DNA from: Daphnia carinata
Taxonomy: Eukaryota
Assembly (NCBI RefSeq): GCF_022539665.2
Contig: NC_081334.1
Span: forward strand, 434,001 to 498,000
Reading direction: 5' to 3'
Length of the DNA: 64,000 nucleotides
Shown: positions 10,497 through 56,172 of the stretch, piece by piece
Numbering within the stretch: position 1 is the first letter of the stretch
Layout of the letters: the number at the start of each line of letters is the position of its first letter
Position numbers and translations under genes: made by a program
Notes under the pieces: generated by a model
Told to the model about the DNA's origin: nothing
What the model saw: the letters and a program-made list of their open reading frames with translations, nothing else
The model's database searches: none

Positions 10497-10530
10497 TAAT
10501 GGTGGCAGCGATTTCTCGGACTCACCCACA

Positions 10531-13329: not shown

Positions 13330-13382
13330 GTATCAACTGTAACTTCGGGTCAGTTGATAGGGTACCTCAGTTGAAATCCCGA
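13317..13382 (+). promoter_or_regulatory. Programmed -1 ribosomal frameshift signal (gag-pol) of element B
   Basis: G GGA AAC at 13317-13323 in the gag frame, a 7-nt spacer, then stem TATCAACTG (13331-13339) / CAGTTGATA (13351-13359). The -1 frame is open into pol. Confidence 0.85.
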
Positions 13383-15601
13383 CAAGTTGCGAAATTAACA
13401 ACAATAATAAACGAATCGACCCCCAGAATTCCATTACAAATTTTTCAGATCCCTTTACAGGCATTATTTGACACAGGCGCGTCTAGAAGCATAATTCACG
13501 AGAAGATATTTCAAAAGCTTCCCTCGAGAAATCAAGTAACCTGCAGTCAGCTTGATTTCGATTTATACGATGTGGGAGATAACAAGTTGCATACGCTGGG
13601 TAAAGTTACATTGCCCGTACGTTACGGAGAGTCCGTTTTACGGCAAGAGTTCATTGTTACAAATGGTGTTTCTGAAGACTGTATCCTTGGATGGGATGCA
13701 ATCCAGAAACACGGGTTTCGGCTTGACGGAGAAGCCAAACGTATTTACTTAGCCAGGGATGAGCAGGGATCAGCCATCTCTAGGGCACCAGACATGGCAA
13801 TTACGACGGTCAAAAACACGACGCTATTTCGTCAGACGGCGCTCGTAATCGCAGCGCAAATGACAGGTTCATTTCCGTATGTCCCCCCTAATAGCACATT
13901 TATCTTTACCCCAGCAGAGGATTTGCCGGCCGGTATTTTTATTGAAGAATTTGTTGGAACTGTATCGGGAGATGGGAAATATCAAATTATGGTCGAAAAT
14001 CATTCGTTAAGTCAAGTCATACTTCCTAGGAATACAACCTTAGGCCAAATCGAAGTAATTCATAACGTAATTGGTAAGATTGCCTTACGTCAACCAGAGG
14101 GAAAGCCTACACAAAAACGGGAGCTAGCTTTAATTTCGGAAGTCGACGCTGAATTTCAAGCTCCGCTCTCAAGTTTATTAAATGACTTTCATGACTTGTT
14201 CGTAACAAAAGACTCGGAATTAGGGAGCACTAATCTCATTAAGCATACGATCGATACCCAAGGAAGAGGCCCTATCCGGCAACGACCCTATCGAGTTACG
14301 AACCACCAAAGAAAGATACTGGAGGATAAAGTGCAGGAAATGATGGACGCAAATGTAATACAATATTCTCATTCTCCATGGGCGTCACCTGTGGTTTTGG
14401 TTGAGAAGAAAGGCGGAGACGTGAGGTTTTGCGTTGATTATCGGAAATTAAATAGCATTACAAAAAAAGATTCATTCCCTATGCCAAGGATTGATGAGAC
14501 GTTAGATAAATTATATGGGAAGAAATTTTTTACGACCCTCGATTTGGCCTCCGGCTACTGGCAAATTCAAGTGAATGAACCAGACATTGAAAAAACCGCT
14601 TTTGTAGTAGAAAACAATCTTTACGAGTTTAAAAGGATGGCGTTTGGCTTGTGCAATGCACCTGCCACATTTCAAAGATTAATGAATTATGTACTGAAAG
14701 ACGTTTTGGGACATAAAGCGTTAGTTTATTTGGATGACGTCATAATATTTTCGGATACCTTTGATAATCATTTAACAGATATTCGCGAAATTTTCACTTT
14801 ATTGAAAAATGCCAATTTGAAATTAAAGCTTAAGAAATGTCAATTCGTTAAACGTTCTGTAAATTATTTGGGCCACGTCATTTCGACTGAGGGAATTAAA
14901 CCTGATCCTGGAAAAATCGACAAAATATTAAATTACAAAACGCCTACTTCTGCCGATGAGGTGAGGTCATTTCTCGGCTTAGCAGGTTATTATAGGAGAT
15001 TTATTCCCAACTTTGGTTCAATGGCAAAACCTCTGACTAGGTTAACTCACAAAGACCTTAGTAAAAGACCTTTTACCTGGGGGGACGAAGAACAAGTCGC
15101 GTTTGTAAAGTTGCGGACATCCCTGGTTACACCGCCGGTTCTCGCATATCCAAATTTTAATGAAAAATTTATTCTTTTCACTGACGCATGCGACTATGGT
15201 ATTGGGGCCGTCTTATCTCAAATGCAAAACGGTCAAGAGCACCCGATAGCGTACTCCAGTAGGCAGTTAACCAAGGCGGAAATGAAGTATAGTACAACCG
15301 AAAAAGAAGCTCTGGCAGTCGTGGATGCCATTAAACATTTCCGTCACTATCTCTTGGATAAACCCTTTGAGATAATTAGTGACCATCGTCCTTTGCAGTG
15401 GCTTAAAAATCAGAAGGATAATAATGGAAGGTTAGGGAGGTGGGCCATTTTATTGGCTGCAACAAATTATGAATTAAAATATAGGCCAGGCCATGTTCAC
15501 CAGAACGCGGACTGTTTGTCTAGATTAAAAATAGCTAGCATTCAAGCTGGGAAGGATATTAAATTGATCTGCGAAAAACAACAAGAGGACGACCTCTGTA
15601 T
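13317..15601 (+). CDS. Element B pol, 5' part (protease, RT, RNase H), cut by Copia C
   Basis: LFDTGAS, RFCVDYRKLN, LDLASGYWQ, YLDD, FTDACDYGIGAV, SDHRPL. Confidence 0.95.
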
Positions 15602-15992
15602 TGTTAAGAATATCAGCCACGTCACAACGCATCGCCCACCAGATGGCACTGAATGCAATAGAGAAGCTGCCGTTCTCTACACAGCCTTCATGGATGCTGT
15701 TAAACACCTCCCCTGTCTACTTAATCATCGTCTGCTGCGCCGTCATCACGCTCTGTCTGACGGCTGCCCCTTTATCTCTCAAGTGATTTATTTCTCTAGA
15801 ACTAACGCTGAGTTCACTTTCTCAATACTCACATGGTAAATATCAAATACTTCATATTGTATGTACATTGATGCAGATATGAGATTGTTAGATATTTCAT
15901 GTACCTGTGCAAAGAATACAGAAGCCTCGCTCTCATATCCTTGTGTATCTAACAGGTTATGGGCCCAGTACCTTCAACCAGTTATACTCAAG

Positions 15993-16990
15993 ATGAATTC
16001 TATGCGAGATGTCAACCATATTGCCAAATTTAATGGGCAAAATTTCCCACTATGGAAACTTGGGCTCTGGATCCTACTCCAACAACACGAGCTGGTCAAA
16101 GTTGTAACTGGAGAAGAAACCGTCCCTGTTGAGGTACATTGTAACACAATTACACATTCCAACAGATGATCTTATTGTTTCCAATCGATTTGTAGACAAC
16201 ATCAGATGGAACTGTTACTAATGCTGCTGCTATATCAGAATGGCATACCAAAGATACACTTGCCCGTGGATATCTAATATCCACTATTGAGAGCCAACAA
16301 CAGAGATCTCTGATCAATTGTAACACAGCCAACGAGATGTGGGTTCGTCTATCGGCTCAATACCTCAGGAATGCTGTCGAGAATCGTTACGTCCTACAAG
16401 CAAGATTTTTCGAATACCGCTACAACCCCGACCATGATATTATGGCACACATCACAGAAATAGAAACAATGGCCACTCAACTCACAGACATCGGAGCAGA
16501 AATCGATAGTATTTCTATTATAACCAAAATAATCTGTACGTTGCCACCCAGCTATCGGAGTTTCATTACGGCTTGGGACAGCGTCCCATTTACAGATAGA
16601 ACAATGGCCTTACTTACATCTCGGCTACTAAAAGAGGAAGAAATGGCCAAACGATGGAGCACCGGTCGTCCGGACGCCCAAGATGCTGCTTTCTTCGCAC
16701 ATCACTTCCCATCTCACTCACAAGTTCCCAACTCCTCATATGTAACACGTGATCGTGAACGTGGAAGGCGTGGCAGTTCGGGCAACCGTTCTCATAGCAG
16801 ACAACAACTTTACAGATTCTGCACTTATCGTCGCTGCAACATCGCTGGACACACACTTGAAATTTGTCGAAAAAGAATCAGAGACGAACGAGAAGCATTA
16901 AGAAACAAGAATAACTTCACTGCTACCCCTGCCGTTACAAACCAAGAAGAAGGAATAGTAAAAGCACCACGAACAGCATCTCGAAGATGA
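15993..16990 (+). CDS. Copia C gag, join(15993..16133,16196..16990), with a 62-nt GT-AG intron
   Basis: Exon 1 MNSMRDVNHIAKFNGQNFPLWK...VPVE splices in phase 0 to TTSDGTVTNAAAISEWHTKDTLARGYL..MWVRL. The product is collinear with the intronless gag of Copia D. Confidence 0.8.
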
Positions 16991-19900
16991 GGCGTATCTA
17001 TCTTCTTCATGTTTCACTGAACGAAGTGTTAAAGATTGGTTTGCAGATTCAGGATGCACACAGCATATGACCGACCAACGCTCCCTTTTCTGCAATTTCA
17101 CTCCAATCTTATCCGACACGTGGACTGTTAATGGAATTGGCTCTTCCCGTCTGCTTGTACGGGGATATGGAAATATTGAATTCATCGTAACGACTGGTGA
17201 CACACAACGAGTAATCAACATTGCCAAAGTCCTCTATGTACCACGTCTAGGTACCAATCTCATTTCTATTGCTGCAGTTACCGACGTAGGTCTGTCGGTC
17301 CACTTTGTTGAAACCAAAGTAACTTTTGAGAAAAATTTAGCCATCATCATGATAGGCGAACGAATCGGGAAGAGCCTCTATCATCTCTCAATAGTTCCAA
17401 AGCTATCAGATAATCAGCCCCTGAAGGAGTCAGCCTGTTTAGCAACTCCGTCACCAAACTCGATCACCATATGGCATCAAAGGCTGGCGCACGTAAGCTA
17501 CAAAACTATTTTTAATATGGCAACAAAACAACTGGTCGACGGTCTTCATCTACCGAAAAACACCACCCCTCCAACTCAACCGTGCATAGGATGCATTTCT
17601 GGTAAAATGCAGCGTTCACCATTCCCAGTTGGACGGAGCAGAGCAAATGAAGTTGGACAACTGGTCCATTCCGATGTATGTGGCCCCATGCACATATCCA
17701 CACCGGGAGGGGCAAAGTTTTTTGTGCTGTTCACCGATGACTTCAGCGGGTGGCGAGCCGTTTACTTCCTAAAACAAAAGTCCGAGGTAGCCGAATCTTT
17801 CAAAAGCTTTGTGAGCGTTCTTCGTAGTGAAACAGGACGCCTCGTACACACACTGAGAGTGGATAACGGTGGCGAATTCATGAGTCATTCATTCAAAACC
17901 TGGCTATCAGACAAAGCCATCAGGATGGAATCCTCAGCACCCTATTCACCGGAGCAAAATGGAGTCTCGGAAAGAGCTAACCGCACGATCATGGAAGGTG
18001 GGCGCTCTCTAATTCACGCCAAACATCTACCATTGGAACTGTGGGGAGAAGCCATTGCCTGTACTGTATATGTTCTTAATCGTGTCAGCAATAGTACGTC
18101 TTCAACAACACCTTACCAAGCTTGGCATGGGAAAAAACCTAACATCTCTCATCTACGTATCTTTGGATCGCTTGCCTTTATTCACATTCCAAAAGTAGAA
18201 AGACGCAAATTAGAATCCAAAAGCTTCCAGTGCTTCTTCGTTGGATACTCACTCACCCAAAAGGCATATCGATTTTGGGATCCAGTCGGTAGAAAAATTA
18301 AAATAAGTCGGGACGTCATCTTTGATGAAAACTCTAACACTTTATCTCGTTTTTCTCCTCAAATAGAAACTAACAATTTCGATGAGCTTTTTTCAAGACC
18401 GGTCAACCTTACAACACCAGCCCAAGAGAAAATCAACCCTGTCATCATGATACCCCAGGTTTTAGAAGAAACCAAGAACGAAACAGAATCATCATCTATT
18501 ACCCCGGAACTCTCAGGCAGTCCAGCAGCTAATCTACAGCACACCTCACACCAAGTGGAAGCCGAGTCCGACCCTTCTTCATCAAGCATAGAGACAATAC
18601 TTACCGAAACCAACACCCACAATGATGTACCCTCATCTATACGCTGCTCCCCATACCCTTTACGAGTGCGTGAGCCAAAACGCCAATGGAAATCTCTGCA
18701 GTCAACTGTCACTCAACGCACAGAAATTTACGAGCCAACTACCTATTCTGATGCGATGGAATGTGATGATGCACTTCAGTGGAAAGTGGCTATCCAAGAT
18801 GAGTATGATTCGCTGATACGCAACGGGACATGGTATCTCTCTCCACTCCCACAGAATCGAAAAGCCATAAAATCACGCTGGGTGTTTAAAGTGAAACCGG
18901 GCACCGTAGACTCCCCTCCACGTTACAAAGCAAGATTAGTTGCCAAGGGGTTCTCACAACGACCCGGAATCGACTTTGAAGAAACATTCTCGCCAGTTGT
19001 AAAACATGATACACTTCGAATAATTTTATCTCTTGTCGCCAGTCTTGATTTAGATATGTCGCAGCTTGATGTCAAGACGGCGTTTCTATATGGGGAACTG
19101 GACGAAGAAATTTATCTTCAACAACCCGAAGGATATATTTCCCCCGGTCAGGAAAACTATGTTTGTCGGCTACAGAAATGCCTGTACGGTCTTAAACAGG
19201 CCTCAAGAATATGGAATCGTCACTTTGATAGATTTTTGAAGAAATTTGGCTTACAATCTAGTAACGCAGACCCATGCCTTTACTCTCGCCGCAACAACAA
19301 TGAAATCCTCTTTGTTGTCATCTGGGTTGACGATGGTCTTGTCATCAGCAACAATCGAAATCTGGTAACTGAAATAATTGATTACCTAAGCAAGATTTTT
19401 GAAATGCGGTGCACTCCCGCTAACTACTTTGTCGGTATGTCCATCAATCGAAGCCGAAAAGACAAAACCTTATTCATTTCACAACCAGATTACATTAAAA
19501 AAATCCTTAATCGTTTCCACATGACAGACTGCCATCCTAAAAATATTCCAGCACAACCCGGATACCACCTGACTCAAAATGTTGGAGAGGAGTTTCTAAG
19601 CAACGTGCCATACAGGGAAGCGGTCGGGAGTCTAATTTACCTGGCGATAGTATCTCGCCCAGACATCTCATTTGCTGTTGGCCAAGTGGCACAATTTTCA
19701 GAAAACCCACAACAACATCACTGGGCAGCAGTTCGGAGAATATTTGCATATCTCAAAGGTACACAGGAACATGGAATTCGCTTCGGCCCGACAAACGACC
19801 GCTTAATTGGATACACTGATTCGGATTTCGCTGGGGATACGGCAAGCCGAAGATCAACCACGGCATTTATTTTTCTTCTTAACGGCGGACCAGTAGCATG

Positions 19901-20285
19901 GACTAGCCGTCGCCAATCTTGCGTTGCATTGTCCTCCACGGAATCTGAATTTGTAGCTGCCTGTGAGGCCACGAAGGAAGCAGTCTGGCTCAAACGCCTG
20001 ATGGAAGACATATCACCTGGATGGATTGAAACTATCCCCTTAATGTGTGACAATCAGTCAGCCATCCAACTCATCAAAAATCCGGTTTTCCACCAAAGGA
20101 CCAAACACATTGATGTAAAATATTACTTCATTCGCGATCGACAAGAAACCGGCGACATTAACATCTCGTATATATCCACAAACGATCAGCTTGCGGATCC
20201 CTTGACTAAGAATCTACCTAATCCCCGTTTTTCGGCACTACGGGAATTAATGGGAATTGTACCTGTCCCACCAAAACTAAACTAA
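16963..20285 (+). CDS. Copia C pol (protease, integrase, RT, RNase H)
   Basis: WFADSGCTQHM, WHQRLAH, HSDVCGP, RVDNGGEF, YKARLVAKGFSQ, WVDD, YTDSDFAG, RTKHIDVKY. It is offset from gag by +1 near 16960. Confidence 0.95.
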
Positions 20286-20861
20286 TTTCTTTTTTATTAT
20301 TTTAGATGGTGGTAGAATCCATATAACAGAAGTACAACTATATATGCTATCACCATCACTGAAGCAGTATCAATTCAATTCAAAGAATCAAGAAGAAGAT
20401 CTACTCACCTCACTATTATTTGCATTATTTCTTTCTTCTCTGTTGTCTTTTTCAACTTTGAGTTTGTGTTCTTGTGTTCTCTTCCATTCTTACATGTCTG
20501 AGAGGGAGTGTTAAGAATATCAGCCACGTCACAACGCATCGCCCACCAGATGGCACTGAATGCAATAGAGAAGCTGCCGTTCTCTACACAGCCTTCATGG
20601 ATGCTGTTAAACACCTCCCCTGTCTACTTAATCATCGTCTGCTGCGCCGTCATCACGCTCTGTCTGACGGCTGCCCCTTTATCTCTCAAGTGATTTATTT
20701 CTCTAGAACTAACGCTGAGTTCACTTTCTCAATACTCACATGGTAAATATCAAATACTTCATATTGTATGTACATTGATGCAGATATGAGATTGTTAGAT
20801 ATTTCATGTACCTGTGCAAAGAATACAGAAGCCTCGCTCTCATATCCTTGTGTATCTAACA

Positions 20862-22528
20862 TGTATAGCCATCAAGAATTATCTAGAAGAAGGAGAGCTG
20901 GATGAAATTTTTAAATTGTCCAAACCCGAGTGGGTAGAATACTTTATAGACGGGAACTGCCATCTCAGAGTAATAAAAGGAACGACACCCATCATCAATT
21001 AGTTTTGCCATTATCCCTACGCCACCTAGTGCTTAAAGAATTACACGACGCACCGATGGGTGGCCATTTGGCATTTTATAAGACCTATATGAAAGTCAAA
21101 AATAATTATTATTGGCCCAACATGAGAGGCGATGTTAAAGAATATTGCCGGGCTTGTGAAGTTTGCATAGCCAACACTGCTTCACCCTATCGAGCACTTT
21201 TGCATCCGCACGAAATTGCGAAGGCTCCTTTTGATGTAATTGGAATGGACTTTCTGGGTCCTATTACACCAGTTTCGCCCAATGGTAATAGTTACATTTT
21301 AGTTATTACAGATTATTTTAGCCGTTGGGTTGAGGCTGTTGCTTTAAAAGATCAAACTGCTCAGACAACAGCAGAATGTGTATATAAAACTGTTATTGTT
21401 AGACATGGTATGCCTAAGGCAATTATTTCTGATCGTGGGACAAATTTCACGTCCAAGTTATTTCGCTATTTTTGTAAAAAAATTGAAGATCAATCAGAGG
21501 TTAACCACCGCTTATAACCCTGCTAGTAATGGGGAGACGGAAAGGTTCAATCGAACTTTAACGTCTATGTTAAGAAAAGAATTAAAAGACGGCGAGCATG
21601 CCAATTGGGAAGAAATATTAGATGATGTTTTATTTGCGTATCGTAGCTCGGTCCACTCTTCGACATTGGACACTCCATATTATTTACTTCACGGTAGGGA
21701 CCCAAATATTCCTATTAACGAATTTCTTAATGCATCTCCCAAAACATTCAAATCTTCTTCTGACTATGTTGGGAATCTGACAGAACGTTTGCGTTATAGT
21801 TTTCAAAGAGTTAGAGAGGAAAGCGAAAAAGCTAGAAAGCGCCAAAGGGAACAATATAACAAACGCGCGAAAGAAAAACGATATGTGATAGGCGATCGGG
21901 TGTTATTGGATATTCGAGTAGTTAAGGAAGGAGATAGCAAGAAATTTACTTCGAAATATAAAGGGCCTTATAGAATAGTAAACGTTTATTCAAATAATAC
22001 TGTAGACATTGCTGATAATTCATATATATGTCAGCGGACGCATGTAAATAGATTAAAACCCTTGTATGAAACAATGCTGTGGAAACATGAGCATTGTCCG
22101 CCACTTGAGACCCCTTTGGAATTCGAGAGCCGATTCCGAAAGTCTATTGCGACTCAAACTAATGTGCGTGAACACGAGCCCGATGTCGAAACCGCAAGGC
22201 AACAAAACACCGAGTCCGAAGCCGTATCAGAAGTGATATCAGACACTTATTCGGCAAATCATCAACTTGTGCGAGAAGACAATGTGATCGGCCCGTCTCA
22301 TCTGTCGTTCGAAGGACGATTAACCTCGAGTGACAATTGCGATGTGACGAGTGATGCTCAGCATCCAATGCCACTTTCCGAAAATACTCCTATATACGCT
22401 GATAGTGATTCCGACCTTCAACAAGTAGAGCCCAAGATGATGTGACAGCAGCGTTATTGCATCAAGAAGTCACCCGACGCCCTCAGCGAAATCGGAGAAA
22501 ACCGATTCGTTACAGGGACGAAATGTAG
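20862..22528 (+). pseudogene. Element B integrase, frameshifted
   Basis: HHCC zinc finger LHDAPMGGH..CRACEVC, core IGMDFLGP..ISDRGTNF..NGETERFNRTL, GPY/F motif KYKGPYRI. Frameshifts near 20930, 21480 and 22440. Confidence 0.92.
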
Positions 22529-22700: not shown

Positions 22701-23225
22701 ATGGACAACAAGTCTGAATCCATCTCTGAGCCCGTGACCAACGACTGGATACCTATGGTATCCATCCCACTCCCCGTCGCGGAGGCCCTCTTGGTAGACC
22801 TCACGACGTCGTCCGGAGATGCCTCGACGGCCGAACGTGACGCGCCGGATTCGCCAGATCCCTCACCAATCGACGACGAGGAGACCGCGGCCCGTAACCC
22901 GCCGGGGACGTCCGAGATGGAGGATGCCATCGATTTTAGCCGCGGCAGACCCCGCACCTCGGACTGGCACCTCGATGCAGCCTGGGAGCAGAAGCAGCTG
23001 GAAATCAAGACAAATCAGTTGATCGCCCGTCTTCTCATCACCCTGTATGACAAGAAATAGAGTGACGCCGTCTTCACCCTAAAGGCGATCCTCGACCTGG
23101 ACCCCGAAAGGCGCCATCCACCGCTCTATGGTTGGACATCGTGCCACTGGGACTTGCCCGAGAAGAGACCCAGCACGGACGATCAACAGAAGGACCCCAA
23201 CGCAAAGAAGCCGAGATACTTCTAA
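22701..23225 (+). CDS. Element B accessory ORF (acidic N-terminus, basic C-terminus) with one internal TAG at 23058-23060
   Basis: The frame stays open past the TAG as SDAVFTLKAILDLDPERRHPPLYGW...EKRPSTDDQQKDPNAKKPRYF*. The ORF is GC-rich, preceded by TATATAAA (22579-22586) and followed by AATAAA (23423-23428). Confidence 0.55.
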
Positions 23226-24338
23226 GTCGTACGAGGACAACCGAAGAAATCGAGGAAGGAGGAAGCTTTTTCATTCGACCCTCTTTCACTCCTCGTTATG
23301 TGTTTATTCCTGATATTTCTCCTTCAATTTTTATGTTTACATTTACCATACTTTAATATTTACCTTTATTTTGATTTCACATACCAATATTCGCTTTAAC
23401 TCTCCTTGCTGCTATCCATCGAAATAAACTCATTGGTTGCTTAATCGTTTGTCAAACCTATGAACGTATTATCTGTTACAACATGTATCTTGTTTTTTCA
23501 CGTCGTACACTTTAACTTTCTCAATTTACGCCCCGTAGTCATTCCCTTGTTTGACAGCCCATAGTATAAGTCCACATAGATTTTGATAAGTAGAGCCTTT
23601 TGAGTAGAGAAAAAAAAATAAATAACAAAAAATCTTTTGCTTCAGAAAAAAAAATTTAGCTTGATCATATTCTTTTTGCGGATTTTCTGAACCGCAATGT
23701 CAAATTTCGTTTCCTATTTCCCTTCCTATCTCCTACACGTCACTTTCGTTATTCTCTCAACGAATAGGTCCAAATCGTAGCCGTAACTTTTATACTCTCA
23801 TTCCAATATGCCGCGCAATACTGTTCACTTTCCCTTTCGTTCGTACACTACAGCTTGGCCATAGCCAACATCAAGAATACCGTATTAGCGCCGCCTCCCT
23901 TTTCCTGGAACTAATACTACTCTTGGACCTTGGACCTTCGCGGCAAAATCTCTTCCCGTCGCAAACTTTTAAACGTTTCTTTTCTTGTCCTCCCTGATCA
24001 ACTGTCCTGTATTTTCTTACTTTCCCTTTCCGATAATTATGGTCATCTTTTTCTCTTTCCAACGATACTAAATAATATAAAAAACAAGTTGTCCTTCCCC
24101 CTCAAAACAAAACTTTATTCTAGTGCCCATTTTCCTTTCTCTTTTCCGTAGCCTACTAATAAAGCCGACGGGAAAAGCCGTTGACCTTTCGACAGCCGTA
24201 GGCTATTTCCCACTTTCACTTTTCCCACTTCTTCTTGTATGTTTTTTTTGTGTTACTTAGTTAAGCCCACACGATGACATTTTTCTTTTGTTAAGTCACA
24301 TATTTCCTTTTGTCTGTATGTACCGGTCGGATATAGAA

Positions 24339-26027
24339 ATGTCCCCCTCTGCATTCCTGCTGCTATTATGCGTGTACGGATTACATTCCCAGGCCTTCGA
24401 GACTACCGTATGCAATTGCGCGGAACCAGTGAAGGTGGGAATTCTTCAATTCTCCGATGAGAATTGTCAACCGACATCCACCGATATTAAAGCCACCAAG
24501 GTGAAATACGCCGTGTATAGTGAAGAACGCGCCGCGACTAAATTCCCGGGTTACATCTGTGCCCGTTGGAAAAATATCCGACACATCACAATGACCTTCT
24601 TCGGGCAACTATTAGTTGTGCCGGACAAAATCCCAATTGATACTACCCCTGCCGACTGCAACGAAATGATTGGCAACAAGAGGTGCAATGATAACCGGAT
24701 GACTTTTGTCGACGGAAAATTTGTGTTCGACAATGAACCAGATATCTCTGGATACTGGTTACAAACAATCGATTCGTCAATCATAAACTGCGTTCTCGAG
24801 AAAGTCGAACTTTTCCAGCAAAAGGAGGATGCAGACTTCTCAACACCCATCGGAATTGCTTCTGCTACGTCCGGGAATTTGTCCCACAATCACTTAACAC
24901 TGATTTGGGACAAAACCTACACACAGAAAACCAAAGTAACTACCAGACTCGTCGAAGACGGCATCGGTATACTGACCCGATTGCCAGGAGAAAAACCACT
25001 CCTTAGACTCCAAGATGACAAAAACCAATTGGACTTCCACCTGACACCAGTACTGCGCTGCGTTTCAGTACAACAAAATTGCTCCAATAGAACTTCTTCA
25101 TATGAAATCGTCGGCCAATCAAAACTCTTCGTCACGACGGCAGCCATAATGGAAAAAGCAACCCCAGTGGAGACCCGAGCGCAACTCGGCGCCGAAAACT
25201 TAAATATTCCGGCCAATATCCAATACATCCGTGATCAACTCACCGACCACGAGAATGAATTGGCACGACAGGTTCAACTACTTCAATGTGAAGCTCGTAA
25301 AGCCAAACATGAAAGGGCCGTCACAACCGCCCAATATAATGGATGGCTAGCGGCCTCACAATTAAACTTACCCCGGTGCACGAAATTACAAGCATTCGGG
25401 AAGACGGTCGTATTAATTCAATGTCAGGCCTTAAATGTCACATTTGAGACTGTATTGACTTCATGCGGACCGCAACCAAAATTCCAAAATTATACGATTA
25501 ACCTCGATGGCTGGGAACTCGTAAAATATTCCCCTTGTTATTGGACAAATGGATTTGTCAATTTCAATAACAAACCCTATGCCTTCCGTAATAATACGTG
25601 GGAACAACTCGAAGCCACAATTGTATTGCCTGAGCAAACGCTGGCACACTCTTTCCGCTACGAGAACGTCGAATTTTTCGACTACGAACACCAAAGTAAC
25701 CCGGCATACACCGACAATATGCTTAACCACATGAACATCATGGCCGACATAGCAGCCGTGATCAACGAACATCCATCATCCGAATTTACGTCGCACGGTA
25801 AACCCAGCGCCACAAATATTTTCATAACGGCCTCCAGTGTCGGAGCTTACACATCTTGGTGGGAAACAATAAAAAATTACTTCTTCATCGGCATCATGTG
25901 CATCCTCGTATTACTCTTCCTACGCATCTGCTACTGTTGCGGTCTCTTCAAGATCTTCTGGGTTATATGCCGTCGCCCTCATAAACGTTCAACATCCTCC
26001 GAATCCATCCCCATGCATCAAGTCTGA
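24339..26027 (+). CDS. env: Element B env-like type I membrane glycoprotein, probable class III fusion protein
   Basis: Signal peptide MSPSAFLLLLCVYGLHSQA, Cys-rich ectodomain with N-glycosylation sequons, C-terminal TM YFFIGIMCILVLLFLRICYCC and a short tail. It lies immediately before the 3' LTR and is uninterrupted. Confidence 0.85.
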   Translation: MSPSAFLLLLCVYGLHSQAFETTVCNCAEPVKVGILQFSDENCQPTSTDIKATKVKYAVYSEERAATKFPGYICARWKNIRHITMTFFGQLLVVPDKIPIDTTPADCNEMIGNKRCNDNRMTFVDGKFVFDNEPDISGYWLQTIDSSIINCVLEKVELFQQKEDADFSTPIGIASATSGNLSHNHLTLIWDKTYTQKTKVTTRLVEDGIGILTRLPGEKPLLRLQDDKNQLDFHLTPVLRCVSVQQNCSNRTSSYEIVGQSKLFVTTAAIMEKATPVETRAQLGAENLNIPANIQYIRDQLTDHENELARQVQLLQCEARKAKHERAVTTAQYNGWLAASQLNLPRCTKLQAFGKTVVLIQCQALNVTFETVLTSCGPQPKFQNYTINLDGWELVKYSPCYWTNGFVNFNNKPYAFRNNTWEQLEATIVLPEQTLAHSFRYENVEFFDYEHQSNPAYTDNMLNHMNIMADIAAVINEHPSSEFTSHGKPSATNIFITASSVGAYTSWWETIKNYFFIGIMCILVLLFLRICYCCGLFKIFWVICRRPHKRSTSSESIPMHQV

Positions 26028-26060: not shown

Positions 26061-26754
26061 TGTAAAGAAGCAAATAAATGTTTTTATTTGATATGCCTTC
26101 CCGTTTATTCTTTATGTATGACTCATGTGTTACGCCATATAAACTGCGCAGTAGTGTATTATATTACATCGGCACCTTGCCGCTTAGCAACATTTGTGAT
26201 TGGCTGCTTAGGCGTTGATCTGTATTGCACCATCAACTTAATATATCAAATTTCATTAGTTGCGACATGTAATTGCGCAGTTGTTAATTGCTGTGCAATA
26301 TGCGAGGTTTCGTGGTGAACCAAGATCTGAGTAAGTTCAGTTGTCGATGAGCCTCTGACTCTTACAGGCGGAGTTCAAGTTCAGCTAGTGCTCCCCATTG
26401 ATAAATTTGTGCAAGTGAATTGAGCTGTGTCACGTGCTTGTCTGAGTGTTCGGTTCACCCATATTGTTTACCCACGTGCCGACGAACTCCTGTTAACGCC
26501 GCCTTCTCTTATATCCTCGCCACGTGCTCCGCTCAAGCCACCGCGGTAAGCTTATACTACAGTATCATATTACACTCCGACTTCTCTTTCTTTAGTCTGA
26601 CTCCTTTTGTCTTATCCCAAACTGACTTCTGTACCGCTTAGCCCTACTTGGATAAATATAAATCATCGTGTGGGTAAATCGCCTCCGAGTTCGATTCATT
26701 TCAATTTGTCTTAATTCCGTAAAGTACATCTTCTCACAGAGAAGATGCTTTACA
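26061..26754 (+). repeat. 3' LTR of element B
   Basis: Direct repeat of 9804-10496. Confidence 0.97.
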
Positions 26755-27724
26755 CTATCTACACGGCGAATCGCCTGAAAAGATGGGCATTGATCCTGAT
26801 GACTTATGACCTCACCATTGAATATCAGAAGACAACCGAATTTGGTCAAGTAGACGCACTCTCACGTCTTATGGATCAGCAAAGGACCCAGCCAGAAGAC
26901 ATGGTCATTGCAAAAATTGAACGAGCCGTCAATGCAGTATGGGCCGAAGCATTACGAGCATTACCTGTAACGGCACGGGAAATCGCACAAGAAACACAAA
27001 ATGATCCTGTATTACCCCAAATTATAAAGGGAGTGAGCACAGGAGGTTGGCAGGAAGGTCAACCGGGATCTGCGCTAGCTGCATTTCGTAACCGAAGAAA
27101 GTCACTTTCGGCAATAAAGAATTGTTTATTCTTTGGCCACAGAATCGTGATTCCTCAAGTTTTACAACACCGAGTGTTGACCATGTTACACGAAGGTCAT
27201 CCTGGTTCCACTCGCACGAAAATGTTAGCGCGCAGCTACGTGTACTGGCACAACATCGATCAAGACATCGTAGACTTGGTGGGAAGATGCACAAAGTGTC
27301 AGGAGTCAGCTAAAAATCCTGTTAAAAACGAGTTAAGTTCGTGGCCTAAAACTACGGGCCCCTGGCAACGAATTCACATAGATTTTGCTGGCTCATTGGA
27401 GGGGAAAATGTTCCTAGTGGTAGTTGATGCTTTTTCTAAGTGGCCAGAGATCATCGAGATGACCTCGACAACTACAGAAGCCACAATTTGGATACCCAAA
27501 TATGCTCGTTTCGGATAACGGAACTCAATTCATGGCTGCAGTGTTCCAAGATTTTTGTGAAAAACACAACATCCAACATGTCAGATCACCGCCGTTTCAC
27601 CCGCAATCGAATGGCCAGGCAGAGCGATTTGTCGACTCATTTAAAAGAGCATTGAAGAAAATGAGAGGGGAGGGAGCTGTAGGTGAAACTTTACAGACAT
27701 TCTTGTTTACCTACCGCAAGACGC
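26755..27724 (+). pseudogene. Element A integrase, N-terminal part and core, cut by Copia D
   Basis: LHEGHPG..CTKCQ, WQRIHIDFAG, LVSDNGTQF, SNGQAERFVDSFKR. A small deletion/frameshift lies near 27490. Confidence 0.92.
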
Positions 27725-28716
27725 TGTTGAAGTATTAAATACTTGCTTGTCTTCAATCTCATTTTTGGGTGTTTATGGTTGGTACGGTAGCCGGAGAAAT
27801 AGGACCTGGAGAAATAGGACCCGAAGATTTAGGACCTATAAATAGGACCTGGAGAAATAGGACCTGGAGGAATAGGACCCAATCTTCAAACATTTTTTGA
27901 AGGGTCCTATTTCTCCATATTGCGGGTCCTATTTCTCCAGCCTTAAAGTCCTATTTCTCCATCATAAAAAATCAATGTACAATTGGTTTTCCTATATGTT
28001 AAAAAAAACCCGAACGGCCTATATTGGTTTCTGCACTCCAAACACCGTTATCAATATGACGCCTCTTCATTGCATTACAACTTTTTTTTTAAATTTACAT
28101 TCATAATATTTTTGCAGGATTATATCCTTTTTCTATTGCTTTTTAGAGCTCATTTAATAGAAAAGTAATTTTGCTTACACAGTATTTGAATTTTTGCATT
28201 TTACATTTTCTTACTGGTGTTTTCAGGCCTACCATCACCCGCCCTTTACTAGTGTCACTATTCACTTTTTTTTTCTTCGTGCCTCAATAAGAATTCTTGG
28301 GAGGGCGCATAAGTACCTCTTAATAAACAGATAACTAAGAAAATTATTACATAAAAATAATTTAATAAACGTTAATTTCATAATAAAACACTGTTTGCCC
28401 TTGCGCAAAATATTGTTTTTTACGATATATATGGCAACGGTTACTACTGCAATAATCAGACCCAGTCACGTCTGACGCAACTGGGGGATTAAGGCACACA
28501 AAAAATACAATACTGACAACGGTCAGGTTAATTTCTTAACTTAATATTCTGGTCAGCGTTTGGTGGGTGGTACACAAATGATGTTTGGTTAGGATCCGCC
28601 AGCCAGTCACGTCGGCTGCACGGATATGAAAAGAGCAATGTTAGACAGAAAGGAATATAGGGTTGCGAGGGTACTTACGTGGAAGCCATGTCTTTTAAGT
28701 AGACGGAGAAGTTGCG

Positions 28717-28830
28717 GTGCGGCGTCGGCAGTACAGCGGCAGGCGGCGTCGTCGGCAGTACAGCGGCAGGCAGCGGCGTCGGCAGTACAGCGGCAGGCAG
28801 CGGCGTCGGGCAGTACAGCGGCAGGCAGCG
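28717..28830. repeat. 24-bp GC-rich tandem repeat (about 4.5 copies) in the long LTR of F
   Basis: GCGGCGTCGGCAGTACAGCGGCAG units. Confidence 0.9.
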
Positions 28831-29428
28831 GGAAGAGGGAAAACGGCGTCTCGGCTGGGTACTCGCGGTGGTGAATTAAGGAACACGGTGGGTGGGTGTT
28901 GGGTCACAGTGTATTCACTTTTCCAATTGGGGTTACACGACACTTTAAACTAACTAACAAATGTACTTAAACACAAGGCGAACTACACTCTAATGTGGCT
29001 AAACGCTGCTACACCACTACACAACTACACGGATGGCAATGTATGGAAAGACTAAAAAAAGGCAGAGCCCAGGCGTGGGTTTTATACCACGCCTTGGCTT
29101 GATGATGCTAAAGTTAGCGTGGGTACGCTAAAGTTTTAGCGTGGGGACGCTAAAGTTTTAGCGTGGGGTAATAAAACAGAAAATAGTGTCAAGAGGGGAA
29201 GCGAGGTCAACTGATAAGGCTGGTGTCGTTGACACCTCGGTTAAACGGAAGAAGCAATAAAAGAGAAATTTGAGTAAAAGGAGGTCAATGAGGGTGAAAC
29301 ACAACATGAACAAGTACGCAAAATACTTAACTAAATTTATTTTAACTTTACGTTTCGCTGGAGTCCTTACATGACTCCCCTCCTCGGAAGATTGCGTCCC
29401 GCAATCGATTCCGCTAGCCGGCCACTAG

Positions 29429-30106
29429 TCACCTAGGGTCGGTCCTGTTTTTTTTGTCGTCGCTCATCGGCGTGGATGATCGTGGTTCCGGTTCCTCCTG
29501 GTTACTCCAAAGGTCGGCTACTAAGTTCTTCCAATTGGTGGTTTCCCAGTCGTCCTCGTCCTTCCTTTGGGAGGGAATCCGGTACTGGCGTTCGACGTAT
29601 CGTGCTGCGGCGAAATCTTCTTCGTCGGAGTCCAAGGAGTAGTGGCTGCTCACGACGCTGACGTGGTGTTCTTCGCCTTGCATCCTGGCGATGCTGTCGT
29701 TTAACGCCGCGACGTCCAGCCCGTTTTGCTGGATATCGCTGTCTGGCGTCAGACAGTATGGTGATCCCTGGGGGTGAGCGACCGCGCCCTCCGCTGGGTA
29801 TAAGATCACGGTCGACGTACCTGAGGAGAACGAGTCGTCCTCCCAAGACACGTCTTCGACAAGCAGGGAGGACTCGTCCGTGTCGTCGGTGACGTCGGAT
29901 CCGTACGAGACTTCGTCGTCGTGAGGGTAATCCACACAACATAACATTTCATCGTCGTCGGTCACGTCCTGCACGTCGCTGTCGTGGGAGGGGTAGTCCG
30001 CGCAATACAAGATGTCTTCATCGTCGGTGACGTACTGCATGTCGCTGTTGTTGGAGGGGTAGTCCGCGCAATACAAGATGTCTTCGTCGTCGGTGACGTC
30101 TTGCAT
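29429..30106 (-). CDS. Acidic protein of unknown function inside element F
   Basis: 225-aa ATG ORF with three near-identical units (MQDVTDDEDILYCADYPS) and a degenerate fourth. It ends just before the pre-PPT hairpin. Confidence 0.5.
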   Translation of the reverse strand: MQDVTDDEDILYCADYPSNNSDMQYVTDDEDILYCADYPSHDSDVQDVTDDDEMLCCVDYPHDDEVSYGSDVTDDTDESSLLVEDVSWEDDSFSSGTSTVILYPAEGAVAHPQGSPYCLTPDSDIQQNGLDVAALNDSIARMQGEEHHVSVVSSHYSLDSDEEDFAAARYVERQYRIPSQRKDEDDWETTNWKNLVADLWSNQEEPEPRSSTPMSDDKKNRTDPR

Positions 30107-31815
30107 GTCGCTATGGTCAGCGGTTTTGATTGACGAGGTTGGGGTCCTAGGGTAAATTCAGGTAGGATTAAGGATATGCTGGAGTTGGGGGTGGTCGTGG
30201 GGTGTGGTATGTGTCGGGGTATGGGTAGGGGGACATACATACATAACATTTTACGGCCCATTAATACTATTCATGGTTACCCTAAGGGTCTACAATGCAA
30301 AAAAAAAAGGGGGGGGGGGGGGGGTAGGTCTTGGTTAGTGAGTTGAAAGGGGGGCGGCTGCTTCTCGTCGTTGTGACAAGCGGAGAGGGTAGGCGGTCGA
30401 TTGTCCCAGGTACTGTGGGTTTAGGGAGGGTCTCGTCGTGCCGTTTGGTGCCGTTGCTGTTGGGGTTGGTATGGTGACGATGGTTACTGGGGCGCTTGGT
30501 GTTGGTCTTGCGGCTAATGTGGGTCCCATCTCGACGTCTTGACGAATGGATTGTGGTGGTGTTAACCAGCTGCAGGGGTTGAAGTACCTGCAGCATGGGA
30601 TATATAATCCAAGGAGTGTACCCAATCCACAGAACCGGAAGGCCAAGGCGATTGCCACTCCGACTCCTGACAGGATCCCATCGCTGCCACCACATGCAAC
30701 AATTGAAATAAGTCGGGTTGCGAGGTTTCAGTTTATTTTAAAAATCGGTACCAAGACATTACAAAATTCACAACTAGTCAGTGTGACGGCTAAAGGAGGA
30801 CTTTCTCTTGGGAAGCTCGGGCGGGGGTTTTATACCGCGCTTTTGCTTGGGGACGCTAAGGTTAGCGTGGGTAATAAAGCAGCGAAACGGTGTCAAAAGG
30901 GAAACGAGGTTAGCAGATACGGTTGGTGTCGTTGACACCCCGGTCAACCGGAAGAAGGTAATAAAAGGGGAGACCGTAGCGAAAAAGGTCGACTGCGGTA
31001 GAAAGATAGCAAGGGCAATATGCGAGTTGAGTTGAGCTTGAAGTCCTTACACTACAAGCAGACGACTGTTGCAAGCTCGAAGTGTCAACAGCCTACAATT
31101 CTATGAATCGTTGAAGTTGTTTATTGTAAGCGGTGTTTGTTTGACAGGTAAGTGGCTAGTTTCAGTAAAATTAAAAATGTTCTATTTCATAGGTTTGGCA
31201 GTTTTGGTACATTTCAAATTCATGTTGGCATTAGCACCACAAAAGAAAAAAATTTACTTGGAAGGAAAGGTATTTAAAGTGTAGACATAATTTTATTAAT
31301 TGCAGTTGGAAATTTGACACAGATTACTAATCCGAAATGTTTCTTAGGTGGTTACTTTCAAGGATAATCATAAAACTAGAGCATGATTTACCATGAATCA
31401 TTTGGGAACCAACTTGTTAGCTGCCTTATAACTATCATCCTTCTGGTAATCTAGATTTTCAGAGATTTTTTGTTCGTGAAATTTATGTAATCATTTTTCT
31501 TATCGTTCAGATGAAATAACAGCATTACGGCTGTTAGTTACGTCAAGACATTCATCTCAAGATGCAAGTACTGAGCTTTAACGGATTTCAATTTATAGAA
31601 GCACGACATCCAATTCTGTTGTTGAGGAGAAAACCAACTACACACCCAGCTATGAATGGTAAGATATGTGTAAGTGAATCTAAATTAATTTTATTTTTAT
31701 GATTTAAAGGCTTTTCGTTCTTCCGTTCACGTTCAAGGCTACAACTCATCGAATCGGACTTTTATAAGCATGCCATAAAATATCTCGCCATTTTTAATTG
31801 AATCATTTGTTCTAG

Positions 31816-32385
31816 GTCTTAGTCATTGGTGAAGAAAACCACTTGCCTTACATGAGGCCACCACTATCGCGTAAGAATTGTGGTTCAGTGACGATCCCGA
31901 AGTGTCAAACAAACTGAAGTTTAAGCAGTGGAACGGAAAAAAGTGAAGGTGATTGTCTAAAGTTATAATATTGTGTTGCGCTATTTTAATGAATGTGACC
32001 TATTTTTGGATCCAGTTTGTTCTTCGATCAGGATGAATTCTACTGCAGTCCAGTGGAATTAGTTGCCAAAGAAAATGGTGGTGTTTCAGTTGTGCGAGGA
32101 CATCATGTAGTTAAACTGGACATTGCTGGTCGCAAAGCCGAGTTAGATGACGGCCTTACCATCACCTACCACAAGTGCCTTATTGCCACAGGTGAATTTC
32201 TTTCGTATTTATCTAAAATTTAAAGTACTCGATAATTATAACTTTTTGGAATGTTGAAAAACTTTTATAATCTTCCTACTAGATAGTATCTGAGAGCCAT
32301 TGTTTAATTATTATTTCAGTTAGACGCATTTTCAACTATTAACTACCTTAATTTATTATCGTCTTAGGTGGCAAACCCTAACATC
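31816..32385 (+). pseudogene. AIFM1: Captured fragment of apoptosis-inducing factor (mitochondrial flavoprotein), introns retained
   Basis: Exons VLVIGEENHLPYMRPPLS/KELWFSDDPEVSNKLKFKQWNGK and LFFDQDEFY..ENGGVSVVRG..ITYHKCLIATG|GKP, separated by GT-AG introns. Frameshifted and truncated. Confidence 0.88.
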
Positions 32386-32732
32386 CAGCAGGAATAAAGA
32401 TGGTAAAAACCCGGATTCGTTCCATGTTGTTCATTCTTGTTGCATGCTATATTATATGTTATTGTTCGTTTTTCTTGTTCGTAATTTTCATTCATCAAAC
32501 CTGAGTTTTTTTTTCTTTCTTAGTTTTGGAAGCAGTTGAAAGGCCCGCAGAGTAAAACAACAGAGTTATTCGACTTTCTCCATCAGCAACAATAGCAGCC
32601 TGAGCAACGGCCGCATAGCAGTGTGAAAAAAAAGTGAAAAAAATTCAAGTCAGTTGCCATTTTTCTTTATACTATTTGCCATACTTTGTGTTAACGTCGT
32701 AAGACTTTAAATTACCAAATTTATCTTTGCAG

Positions 32733-33632
32733 ATCTCGGACGCAGTGCAGTTGTTCGCCGATTATTCGAAGAGCATACGAAACTATTTATACGATGTCGA
32801 TGGCAATATTCTGCTTGATGTTTACACTCAAACCTCTTCAGTTCCATTGGGTTACAACCACCCTGAATTATTAGATGTCAAGATAAGGAAAACATCAGAA
32901 CGTAATTGAATTGATTATTTACCTGTCTGGGCAACATCAAAATTTTAATTTATATTTCTCAAAGATTCATAAACCGACCTGCCCTCGGTGTATTTCCTGG
33001 TGAAAATTATCCTCAGCGAGTCCAGAATTCTCTGTTACGTATTGCTCCCAAAGGCCATACAGAGGTAAGTTGTAGCTCCTTAATTGTTCCGATCTATTGC
33101 AAATAATAAAAAATATATTTAAAGGTAACGACGATGGCGTGTGGATCGTGCTCAAACGAAAATGCGTACAAGGCAATTTTCGTTTGGTATCGCCGGAAAC
33201 AGAGGGGAGATAAGTCATATACCCCAGAGGAGAAGACGAGTTGCGTAATGAACCAATTGCCTGGTGTTTCCGACCTGACTGTTATGTCTTTCAAAGGTAT
33301 TTAGAAACACATTACAATGTTGAATCAATATTAAATTAAAGCCTTTGCTCTGTTACAAAAAGCGCTTTCCACGACAGAACGTTTGGTACGTTAATCACGA
33401 CTCATACCAAGCCAGTCCATAAACTGGACATTCCTACAAAGGACTGGCCAATTGGAACCTTCCCTCGCCACAAGGTTAGTTTTAAAATTTCAATTAGGCT
33501 CAAACTATTACCTGATCTCATATTTCTTGTAATTTTAGTATCCGTTGGAAGTATTTGTGCGTGAAAATGAGGAAGAAGATCGTCGCTGTTTGGCGGAAGT
33601 TGAAGAGCTTTTTGATCGGTACAACAAATGTA
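32733..33632 (+). pseudogene. ABAT: Captured fragment of 4-aminobutyrate aminotransferase (GABA-T), introns retained
   Basis: Exons [111 protein letters not shown]. Disrupted and truncated. Confidence 0.9.
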
Positions 33633-33799
33633 AATAATATGCTTACCTGGATTTAGTTCGTCTGTTGCTACTGAAGTCAAATCGAAAAAGTTTTTTTTGA
33701 ATTTTTTGTTTAATTATTTGTATTTTGTAAAAATAAATGATATGTAAATCAATTACCAAAAATTTATGGTTTTATTTTAATTTAAACAAATTTTCTTGC

Positions 33800-34094
33800 G
33801 TCCTTTGGCTGCCGCGATCCGGACATTCCGCGGATGTTCCAATACGTACGTTCACTGAACGTACGGATTTGCCATCCTGCAGACGTCCAACTAAGGACGT
33901 CCGCAGTACTCCCAAATAAGGACGTTACCAGGACTTCCAATTAATTACGTCCGTAGGACGTCCTCCAATGGACGTCCCTAAAACCGGACATTAGGACATC
34001 CTGGTGACGTACATCTGCCGTCAGAATGGGACGTCCCGATCGGCCAGCCAGGATGTAGATTAGATGTCCCTGGGACGAACAAAGGCTAGTAGGG
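33800..34094 (-). mobile_element. Single end of a DNA transposon with GGACGTCC-type subterminal repeats
   Basis: Dense GGACGTCC/GGACATCC motifs ending in ...GGCTAGTAGGG|TA. No partner end was found. Confidence 0.45.
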
Positions 34095-35560
34095 TATGTA
34101 TGTGCTATAATCTTTTTATTTAAGGAAGGCAAGCCAGCATATGTCATCCAATTTCAGGGGAAAAGCAGGACTCTGATAAAATGAAAACTCAACTTAAACG
34201 GAAGTTAGATAAGTTGGAGAAGAAGAAACTAAACAAACAAAGGAAAAATAACAGATGCCAAGGTAAACTTTGATTTCGACAAAAAAAAATAGACCTTCAA
34301 CTAATTTTACTTTTCTGTATTATAACATAAAAGAATACTAAGCGCAATAGGTTAAAAAAAAAATGTGGAATTCATTGCGAGCTTGATAAACCAATTAGGA
34401 AAGAGAATAAAATCAACATCACAAACGAGAAAAAAGTTGGTTGAACGCATCGAAGAACAAGAAAAGAGAAAGGAACAACAACAGAAAAGGGATAAATCAA
34501 CATTAAGAAAACGAAAAATGAAAGGAAAGCATAAACTGAATAAACTAGCGAAAAAAACAAACTTATCGTATGAATTGCCGATATTGACATGGATGAGCTG
34601 CTTCGTGTGCCATTATTTACAAGCCGTTCCATGATAGTTTTGTATAACAATACACTGGCATGCCTTCCATGATCCGAGCGGAACTCATTATTTTCGTTCT
34701 TGCCACGTAGGTCTCTATTTATGGTTTTGCGGCAAATATTTTTTTTATTAAAAAATGTGCTTGTCTTAAATTATATATATATAATTTTTTTTATTATTTA
34801 TCAGTGTATTAAGGAGTACTTAGGGGAAAGCATGCCCCTCGTCTCCGGGAATTCGCATGGAATAAGGATATCAGCCAGAGGGGAGGGCGATACTAGGACT
34901 GAAAACGCCACTAACGAAAGGTCAAGGGCAAAAAATCAAACACTGTGTCAAAATAAATATAACTTTTATACATGAGCTGTGTAAAGCAATAGATAATGCG
35001 TGTAATCACGCCAAAAAAATACAAATATGATTTTAAATAAAAAAGTTATGATGGACTGATTACACGAGCAATTGATAACGTGGTTTGGAGTGCAGAAAAC
35101 TACATAAGCCATCCGGTTCTTCCTTTACAATAGTGGGCATTTGGGCTATTTTCTAAGGAGAATTAAGACCAATACTAAGGAGAAATAGGACCAATACTAA
35201 GGAGAAATAGGACCCTTATGATGGAGAAATAGGACCCTTCAAAATATGTTTGAAGATTGGGGTCCTATTTCTCCAGGTTCTATTTTGGGGTCCTAAATCT
35301 CCGGGTCCTATTTCTCCAGGTCCTATTTCTCCGGCAATCGTTGGTACACTCCTGTTGGACCAGGGTGGTACCACTGTTCAATGTTGTCGTCTGCTACTCT
35401 CTCTTTTTTTAACTTCAGTCACAAAACGTGTGTGCTCTTTCAGTGAACTAGTTCCGAGCAAGTTTATTACAAAGAAGAAAGCCAAATCGACAATATCGTC
35501 TCAGCTTTGTATTCATTTCAACAGGTTATGGGCCCAGATAAAGTTCACTAAAAAGTAATC

Positions 35561-39391: not shown

Positions 39392-39664
39392 ATTCTTTTT
39401 GTTGTGAAATATCGATTGAGGGGGAGTGTTGAAGTATTAAATACTTGCTTGTCTTCAATCTCATTTTTTGTGTGTTTATGGTTGGTACACTCCTGTTGGA
39501 CCAGGGTGGTACCACTGTTCAATGTTGTCGTCTGCTACTCTCTTTTTTTTTAACTTCAGTCACAAAACGTGTGTGCTCTTTCAGTGAACTAGTTCCGAGC
39601 AAGTTTATTACAAAGAAGAAAGCCAAATCAACAATATCGTCTCAGCTTTGTATTCATTTCAACA

Positions 39665-40361
39665 GACGCCATGTCCATCCGCACCTAATCAGCTGTCCCC
39701 AGCAGAAAACTTCATTGGCCGACCTTTAAGATCGACATTATCGAGCCTGAACACCTTTGAAAATAACACAACGGGAGAAAAAGATGTGAACATGGAAGAA
39801 CAATTCAGAAAAAAACATGGCGCGCGTGAGAAAAGTTTTGAAGTAGACCAGCTAGTTTACGCCCGTGATTATCGTCCGCGAAGACCGAGATGGATAGCGG
39901 GAAAAATCATTGAAAAACGGGGACGCACGATCTACGTGGTAGAAGTGATCGAGGGTTTATGGGTTCGTCACGCAAACCAGCTTCGTCATAGGGCACAGTC
40001 AGATGATGCAGGGAACGATACGGCAGAGGCAGACCTGTGGCAGATGTTCGAGCTACCAGAAGATTCTAACATCAAAGGGAGATCAACACCGCAAAGTCAC
40101 GAAACTCAACCGGTCATGTCTACCGAAGAGGAGCAGGTGACAACTCCCGCACAAGAGGACGAAAACCTTGCAGTACCACCGGAGCGGGAGAAAAGTAACG
40201 ACCCTACACCCATCATCACGGAAGAGACCAGGGAGGAACAGCAATTGATTCCAGGAAATCAACCAGCAGCCTCTCCCAGTTCAACGCGCCTTCGCTCCAG
40301 TAGAATTCCCAGACCAACATCAAGATTAATAATCGACCCTCAAAAGAAAACATACGTTTAA
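39665..40361 (+). pseudogene. Element A integrase, C-terminal part
   Basis: SPAENFIGRPLRS..FEVDQLVYARDY..WIAGKIIEKRG..RHANQLR; it continues the frame broken at 27724. Confidence 0.9.
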
Positions 40362-40376
40362 AACTCAGAAGGGAGG

Positions 40377-40641
40377 TGTTGGGGCGTTGGAATCCCTAGA
40401 ACTAATGTTAGTCACTGGGGAATAGAATTACAGTTTATTGCATGTGGCAATAAGACTTAATGGGAAAATCGAGGCGACGACTCTTGGGGGACGTAACTAA
40501 TACGTTGCCTCCGATATCTATAAAAAACCCCAAAGTCCAAGCCCGGAGTCAGTTAGTAACTTAGATCTTCTCGAAGTGTTTGTAAGTCTAATTATTCATT
40601 TCTGTCAGTGAAATAAAAGTCCTTTAACCACGGTCACAACA
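40377..40641 (+). repeat. 3' LTR of element A
   Basis: Direct repeat of 6874-7138. Confidence 0.97.

Positions 40642-56140: not shown

Positions 56141-56172
<32 letters not shown>

Follow-up and report, generated by a model that had tools for sequence, protein, structure and literature searches.

In Drosophila, gypsy particles from somatic cells enter the germline, as summarized by Chary & Hayashi (eLife 2026; PMC13524379), whose catalog includes 33 errantiviruses of Branchiopoda, 15 of them with an envelope protein labeled 'ENV_HSV'. These 15 'HSV/gB-type' errantiviruses come from Daphnia and Ceriodaphnia, and the same paper calls the entry mechanism of gB-type envs unknown, herpes gB itself needing helpers. 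Chuvirus-like glycoproteins occur in mosquito BEL/Pao elements (Dezordi et al. 2020, as cited in PMC13524379). Here we examine an env gene in a 64,000-nucleotide stretch of Daphnia carinata DNA (contig NC_081334.1, positions 434,001 to 498,000; hereafter the window, within which all coordinates are given). The ORF is very probably the env of an 'ancient errantivirus' of the Ty3/gypsy type with relatives in Daphnia, and its product is a predicted class III protein that likely serves particle entry into neighboring (likely germline) cells. We consider this the best explanation because of the layout of the element, the homology of its env to the Branchiopoda 'HSV/gB-type' envs, the co-divergence of env with integrase, and purifying selection.

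The element, here called B, lies on the forward strand between a 693-bp 5' LTR (9804-10496) and a 694-bp 3' LTR (26061-26754). Both have TG..CA ends, their sole difference is one 1-bp indel, and the 4-bp target duplication CTAT stands outside them (9800-9803 and 26755-26758). A 12-base primer binding site (10500-10511) is followed by gag (10531-13329), which comprises a long low-complexity N-terminal extension, a capsid-like domain, and zinc knuckles. The first part of pol (13293-15601), encoding protease, RT, and RNase H, is in the -1 frame relative to gag, and the overlap holds a slippery-type heptamer, G-GGA-AAC, at 13317-13323; we infer that pol is expressed by programmed -1 frameshifting. 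The second part (20867-22445), i.e., the bridge region and integrase, is separated from the first by a 5.26-kb Ty1/copia element (15602-20861) inserted between RNase H and integrase, with identical 353-bp LTRs (15602-15954 and 20509-20861) and a 5-bp duplication, TGTAT. Next come a small acidic accessory-type ORF (22701-23226), which has an in-frame stop at 23058-23060, and env (24339-26027). The Pfam order of gag, zinc knuckle, protease, RT, RNase H, and integrase is of the Ty3/gypsy type and, together with the LTRs, the primer site, and the 4-bp duplication, bears out the context in which the original prediction had placed this gene. Of the features by which PMC13524379 operationally defines an errantivirus, B has the PR-RT-RH-IN order within LTRs and an env-like ORF with a transmembrane (TM) anchor between pol and the 3' LTR, although the broken frames described below make it a defective member. 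Ancient errantiviruses also have a 'mini' domain after RNase H in the pol bridge, a region that in B is disrupted by the copia and a frame change.

Several other features of the window were observed. ORFs of 175-300 codons follow integrase both in B (22701-23226) and in the three nearest loci (L001, 2605-3252; L005, 1800-2396; L018, 12011-12922), and no homolog of the B ORF was detected in the loci at E 1e-4. B is itself part of a stack of nested insertions at 6873-40641: the outer element, gypsy A, has LTRs at 6873-7138 and 40376-40641 and contains B, within which the copia element (C) lies. Two more insertions in gypsy A are an element bounded by long terminal inverted repeats (~27784-35341) and another copia, whose LTRs are at 35337-35524 and 39478-39665. 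By eye, the gag of the copia inside B seems to hold a short GT-AG intron at ~16135-16195. Further to the right, three long low-complexity ORFs of 1873, 677, and 534 codons on the minus strand (45844-57688) have no Pfam match and probably belong to a large host gene as its exons.

As had been noticed at the outset, gag and integrase of this copy are broken: gag carries an in-frame stop (TAG, 12766-12768) and the integrase region two frame changes, near 20950 and 21480. As it reads, B is a defective copy, one that would fail the intactness filter described in PMC13524379. The contrast with a stop-free env is real, yet carries no signal, because a 1,689-base env would escape 3-4 lesions scattered over 6,687 coding bases by chance with a probability of 0.36-0.51. 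This bears on the idea that the host retained env, by domesticating it or for receptor interference, as gag and pol degenerated. A stop-free env set against four lesions in gag and pol is what such retention would leave behind, but it is also the pattern expected by chance; moreover, one indel is all that separates the two LTRs, so the insertion is too recent for host-driven retention, and in relatives env is accompanied within the element by long open frames for gag and pol. We therefore regard host retention as very improbable. A different question is whether the small gag and integrase lesions are assembly errors and B was intact before the copia insertion. An A7 run is found at one of the frame changes, the only difference between the LTRs is likewise an indel, and the nested copia, whose LTRs are identical, also has a frame change (near 16960-16990). 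The gag lesion, however, is an in-frame stop rather than an indel, and on balance assembly error is a possibility that we do not favor. If the lesions are real, B cannot move autonomously, and any use of its env would be limited to sister copies.

The env ORF, of 562 codons plus the stop, leaves 33 bp between its end and the 3' LTR; no stop interrupts the frame from 24261 onward, and another in-frame Met is found 7 codons upstream. Its product, P0001, has 20 Cys, 14 of them within residues 25-400, and six N-glycosylation sequons. The only hydrophobic segment scoring above 1.6 is that of the 19-residue windows starting at 509-526, which places the TM segment at residues ~515-535. A signal peptide was assigned by inspection and from its resemblance to a D. 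magna relative, its own hydrophobicity window being ≤1.6. The stop-free, Cys-rich frame with a C-terminal TM just before the 3' LTR thus proved to be as first described. In an env of the F type, a fusion peptide would come after a furin site; a search of the protein for the furin motif RxxR found none, and the predicted model has the class III layout. It had also been proposed from the sequence that env has the spacing of the two fusion loops of rhabdovirus G. The motif quoted there was confirmed in the protein, and for loop 1 the proposal is correct: C74, F87, G89, and C107 are spaced as in the rabies G row of the PMC13524379 supplement (compared by eye). The second loop departs from that spacing, as WLxT is 33 residues past the C107-type Cys, vs 27 in that rabies G row, which shifts loop 2 by six residues toward the C terminus (by eye).

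By sequence, P0001 alone matched no fusogen in Pfam or the PDB, and class membership was judged from predicted structures. Family profiles compared with the PDB matched through the TM stretch only, plus gB at E 0.12; coronavirus-spike matches of these profiles cover only the TM and Cys-rich stretch and were rejected as compositional. AlphaFold modeled the full env with a mean pLDDT of 80.6, though a pTM of only 0.51, and residues 48-271, the 224-residue fusion+PH module, with a pLDDT of 93.7. The models have an elongated beta fusion domain (residues ~64-196) with two hydrophobic loops (F87-F88 and W140-L141), one PH domain (~52-61 plus 203-269), a central helix of 46 residues (286-331), and a beta crown (348-423), all of them features of class III. 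When the full model was compared with the PDB by Foldseek, herpesvirus gB accounted for all 36 matches listed (best E 1.4e-15). Against BFVD the best match was unnamed (E 1e-21), and the next were xinmovirus, chu-related, and rhabdo-like glycoproteins at 11-14% identity (E 1e-21 to 1e-18). No gp64, thogotovirus Gp, or F protein appeared among the 50 matches listed by VIA-align for the full model and the fusion+PH module. With herpes gB and G proteins as the matches in both Foldseek and VIA-align, the class III fusogen of the original prediction is well supported by the models.

Which branch of class III env belongs to is less clear-cut. VIA-align placed the full model closest to gB (Z 10.9, 379 aligned, rmsd 7.0), followed by VSV G (Z 9.7, 208 aligned, rmsd 18.8), Chandipura G (Z 9.3, 123 aligned at model residues 64-196, rmsd 3.3), and Mokola G (Z 9.1, 213 aligned, rmsd 7.4). 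The module alone aligned with gB at Z 11.3 (209 residues aligned across 319 of HSV gB, rmsd 5.2) and with VSV G at Z 9.3 (189 aligned across 207, rmsd 8.2), so that gB stands above G by 1.2-2.0 Z for full model and module, whereas ~110 gB residues of the fusion/PH region have no match in the env module. In the predicted models, then, the fusion+PH module is G-like in size and loops, and the overall shape is nearer gB. Env shares with rhabdovirus G both the fusion-loop spacing and a single-PH module. The term 'rhabdovirus G-like', as used in the original prediction, holds for loop spacing, module size, and the Pfam matches of relatives; in overall shape, solved gB scores ~1-2 Z above VSV G, and env may belong to either subclass.

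These data raise the alternative that env represents a distinct fusogen of the G type found in negative-strand RNA viruses (Mono-/Jingchuvirales lineage), helper-free, separate from true gB-like envs, and either acquired by or shared with the gypsy clade. It would refine, not replace, the explanation as a class III env. Among the 63 aligned family members, 17 match Pfam Monjiviricetes_fusion and 8 Rhabdo_glycop_FD, and at E 0.01 none matches a gB family. The Atlas result agrees with the direction of Pfam (0.98), its recognition value being below the tool's reliability mark. The 224 residues of the module cover 207 residues of VSV G as against 319 of HSV gB, those matches of the module that are named among its top five in BFVD are RNA-virus glycoproteins, and loop 1 has the rabies G spacing. 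Opposed to these points are the higher Z of gB for both module (11.3 vs 9.3) and full model (10.9 vs 9.7), the alignment of the 46-residue central helix and crown with gB, and an identity of env to every viral protein of only 7-16%. We judge this G-type origin a serious contender that falls somewhat short of an even chance. No paper terming the Branchiopoda envs rhabdovirus- or Monjiviricetes-like came up in a literature search lying mostly outside subscription journals.

Homologs of env numbered 98; an organism was named for 32 of them, and in all 32 it was Daphnia, in agreement with the crustacean affinity first proposed (best identity, 65%). In a wider protein library, 623 proteins passed E 0.001, and a second, wider homolog search recovered the same family again, with no named virus. 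P0001 was aligned with 62 of the longer hits. In this 63-member alignment W140 is invariant, and positions 87-88 are hydrophobic in 96%; in the wider alignment C74, C107, and C116 are kept in 34/34 and C151 in 33/34. H183 (58/63) and H324 (56/63) are well conserved among the 63 members, but in the wider alignment are kept in only 16/33 and 11/34. Most near-full env spans (18/22) are stop-free. A dN/dS check was made among the 14 closest env relatives, where seven pairs were measurable and gave 0.03-0.19; in pairs with B's own env, synonymous sites are at or near saturation. Env is thus under purifying selection among its relatives.

Env is also a resident part of its element. Metagenome loci with env numbered 38, and B-like pol or integrase was found in 14 of these, the other 24 being short (1.0-3.8 kb). 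Pol or integrase lies directly upstream of env in 11 of the 14 informative loci. In three loci (L011, L018, and L023) env stands before gag-pol, and the terminal repeats found in two of the three are what permuted assemblies should show; L011 and L018 were included in the trees, each taken as one element. One further protein, P0142, combines integrase and an env relative in a single open frame of 967 amino acids. The comparison of element and env phylogenies, run with integrase, covered 11 elements, and all four starred (well-supported) splits were common to both trees; pairwise identities of env and integrase were correlated in a Mantel test (rho 0.88, p 0.0001, with kinship uncorrected). The agreement of the trees and the dN/dS values indicate that env has been inherited and conserved and is not freshly captured: it is an old, conserved part of its element family. 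Of the captured fusogen originally envisaged, the class III type stands, but since env has co-diverged with integrase, any capture must be ancient.

For the same reason, it is hardly credible that env is a piece of an RNA virus recently endogenized into a gypsy element, without a role in the element's cycle. The best viral structural matches are indeed RNA-virus glycoproteins, and glycoprotein fossils of Jingchuvirales have been described near gypsy fragments (PMC10084718). However, no close viral relative was found, with identities of at most 16% and none of 50 candidate stretches confirmed in an IMG/VR scan; the position of env after integrase recurs from locus to locus; and env co-diverges with integrase and shows purifying selection among relatives. 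This reading is largely refuted.

Two features of B or of its env relatives may bear on how these elements work. The N-terminal extension of gag contains a nested +1-frame ORF in both B (10925-12058, 377 codons) and L018 (4549-6036, 496 codons), lengths that only 0-1 of 2,000 shuffled sequences attained, whichever of two nulls was applied; the same search in L012 and L022 found none. The nested ORFs of B and L018 are unlike each other (BLASTP E 0.78). A D. magna gene model is 50% identical to the nested frame of B over 113 amino acids, vs 39% to the gag frame. Atlas returned nothing usable for the nested ORF (best 0.84). From its sequence, the nested ORF is possibly an overprinted accessory gene. 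The second feature is a ricin-B lectin domain in distant env relatives, present in 9 of the 34 members of alignment A2 and in 8 of 12 long env relatives (P0121, P0145, P0147, P0150, P0154, P0165, P0169, and P0226), six of which exceed the Pfam cut-off. The insert follows the PH domain and precedes the central helix; B has no lectin. The words 'lectin' and 'ricin' are absent from the main text of PMC13524379 by word search, and neither lectin insert nor nested gag ORF was found in print in a literature search to which subscription journals were mostly closed.

Class III fusogens act as trimers without furin cleavage, insert their loops into a membrane, and refold into a hairpin. Our preferred reading of env, as the entry protein of an ancient errantivirus, follows this scheme. 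The predicted product would be a type I membrane protein with the hydrophobic loops F87-F88 and W140-L141 at the tip of the long beta fusion domain; next in order would be a single PH domain, the central helix of 46 residues, and the beta crown. By analogy with class III proteins, it would trimerize without a furin cut, its loops would enter the target membrane, and it would then refold to a hairpin; the trigger would likely be endosomal acidification, with H183 and H324 as candidate sensors. If Drosophila gypsy and ZAM are a guide, env would be translated from its own, likely spliced, RNA and would carry particles from soma to germline.

The G-like module, the Pfam matches, and the lectin inserts in relatives together suggest stand-alone entry proteins. 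A broader and decidedly tentative proposal, which we think unlikely to hold in full, is that the Branchiopoda 'HSV/gB-type' envs are a separate, self-sufficient G-type lineage, with one PH domain and rabies-like loops, tied to the glycoproteins of negative-strand RNA viruses, that some have gained ricin-B as a glycan-binding attachment domain, and that the B sub-lineage has an overprinted gag gene. If true, water fleas would harbor infectious, complex-retrovirus-like elements, and 'gB-type' entry without gH/gL would be explained, which sharpens the question about gB-type envs raised in PMC13524379. Daphnia is a tractable host, in which soma-to-germline transfer by a class III env would be testable.

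How, then, does B compare with known systems? Herpesvirus gB has the best overall shape among solved structures (Z ~11), extending to the central helix, crown, and C-terminal arm, but env lacks ~110 of its fusion/PH residues and has one TM segment, and no gH/gL-like partner was seen in B. The rhabdovirus G proteins (VSV, Chandipura, rabies, and Mokola) share bipartite fusion loops, one PH domain, and the absence of a furin motif with env, and the compact fusion domain has its counterpart in that of Chandipura (rmsd 3.3 over 123 residues); however, identity is 10-12%, and the central helix and crown align poorly, with 183-232 residues aligned vs ~380 for gB. The glycoproteins of xinmo-, chu-, nyami-, and arto-like viruses (Pfam PF24664) are the top predicted viral structures, and env relatives match PF24664, whereas env itself is only 11-14% identical to those of xinmo- and chu-like viruses. 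Mosquito BEL/Pao elements with a chuvirus-like env, named 'Anakin', differ in the carrier, which in B is Ty3/gypsy. Drosophila gypsy and ZAM have the same env-bearing Ty3/gypsy layout and are the model of soma-to-germline transfer, but their env, unlike that of B, is F-type (class I) with a furin site.

The nearest described systems are the Branchiopoda HSV/gB-type ancient errantiviruses (type C2c), in particular Dpul_errantivirus_3 and _4 and Cdub_5 and _6 (PMC13524379). By its sequence, the env of B belongs with this type, being homologous and sharing the domain I-II cysteines. Compared by eye with the rows printed in that paper, the env of locus L011 reads as Dpul_errantivirus_3 and the start of the L022 env reads like Dpul_4; the B and L011 envs match over their full length at 33% identity (E 2e-99), and B pol is 44-52% identical to that of L011 and L022. 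B has the same gag-pol-env order within LTRs as Dpul_3 and Dpul_4 and, without copia, is ~11.7 kb long, vs 10.7 kb for Dpul_4 and 11.3 kb for Cdub_6. The reverse complement of its primer site equals the Dpul_errantivirus_4 site at 12/12 positions and is one base off those of Dpul_3 and Cdub_6, which PMC13524379 files as tRNA-Leu; the site of B recurs in L011, L012, L021, L022, and L023. The nested +1 ORF sets the gag of B apart from L012 and L022. In a quick tree of 37 envs with long branches, B groups with D. magna and D. sinensis proteins (SH-aLRT 81-100), sister to the Dpul_3/Dpul_4 clade, and its sub-lineage was not found by eye and motif look-ups among the 15 env rows printed in the paper. 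The novelty implied by the original prediction must therefore be given up for the env family, which is already catalogued in Daphnia as that of the HSV/gB-type errantiviruses (PMC13524379); on sequence grounds, B is a defective copy of a sub-lineage new to that env-bearing Branchiopoda family.
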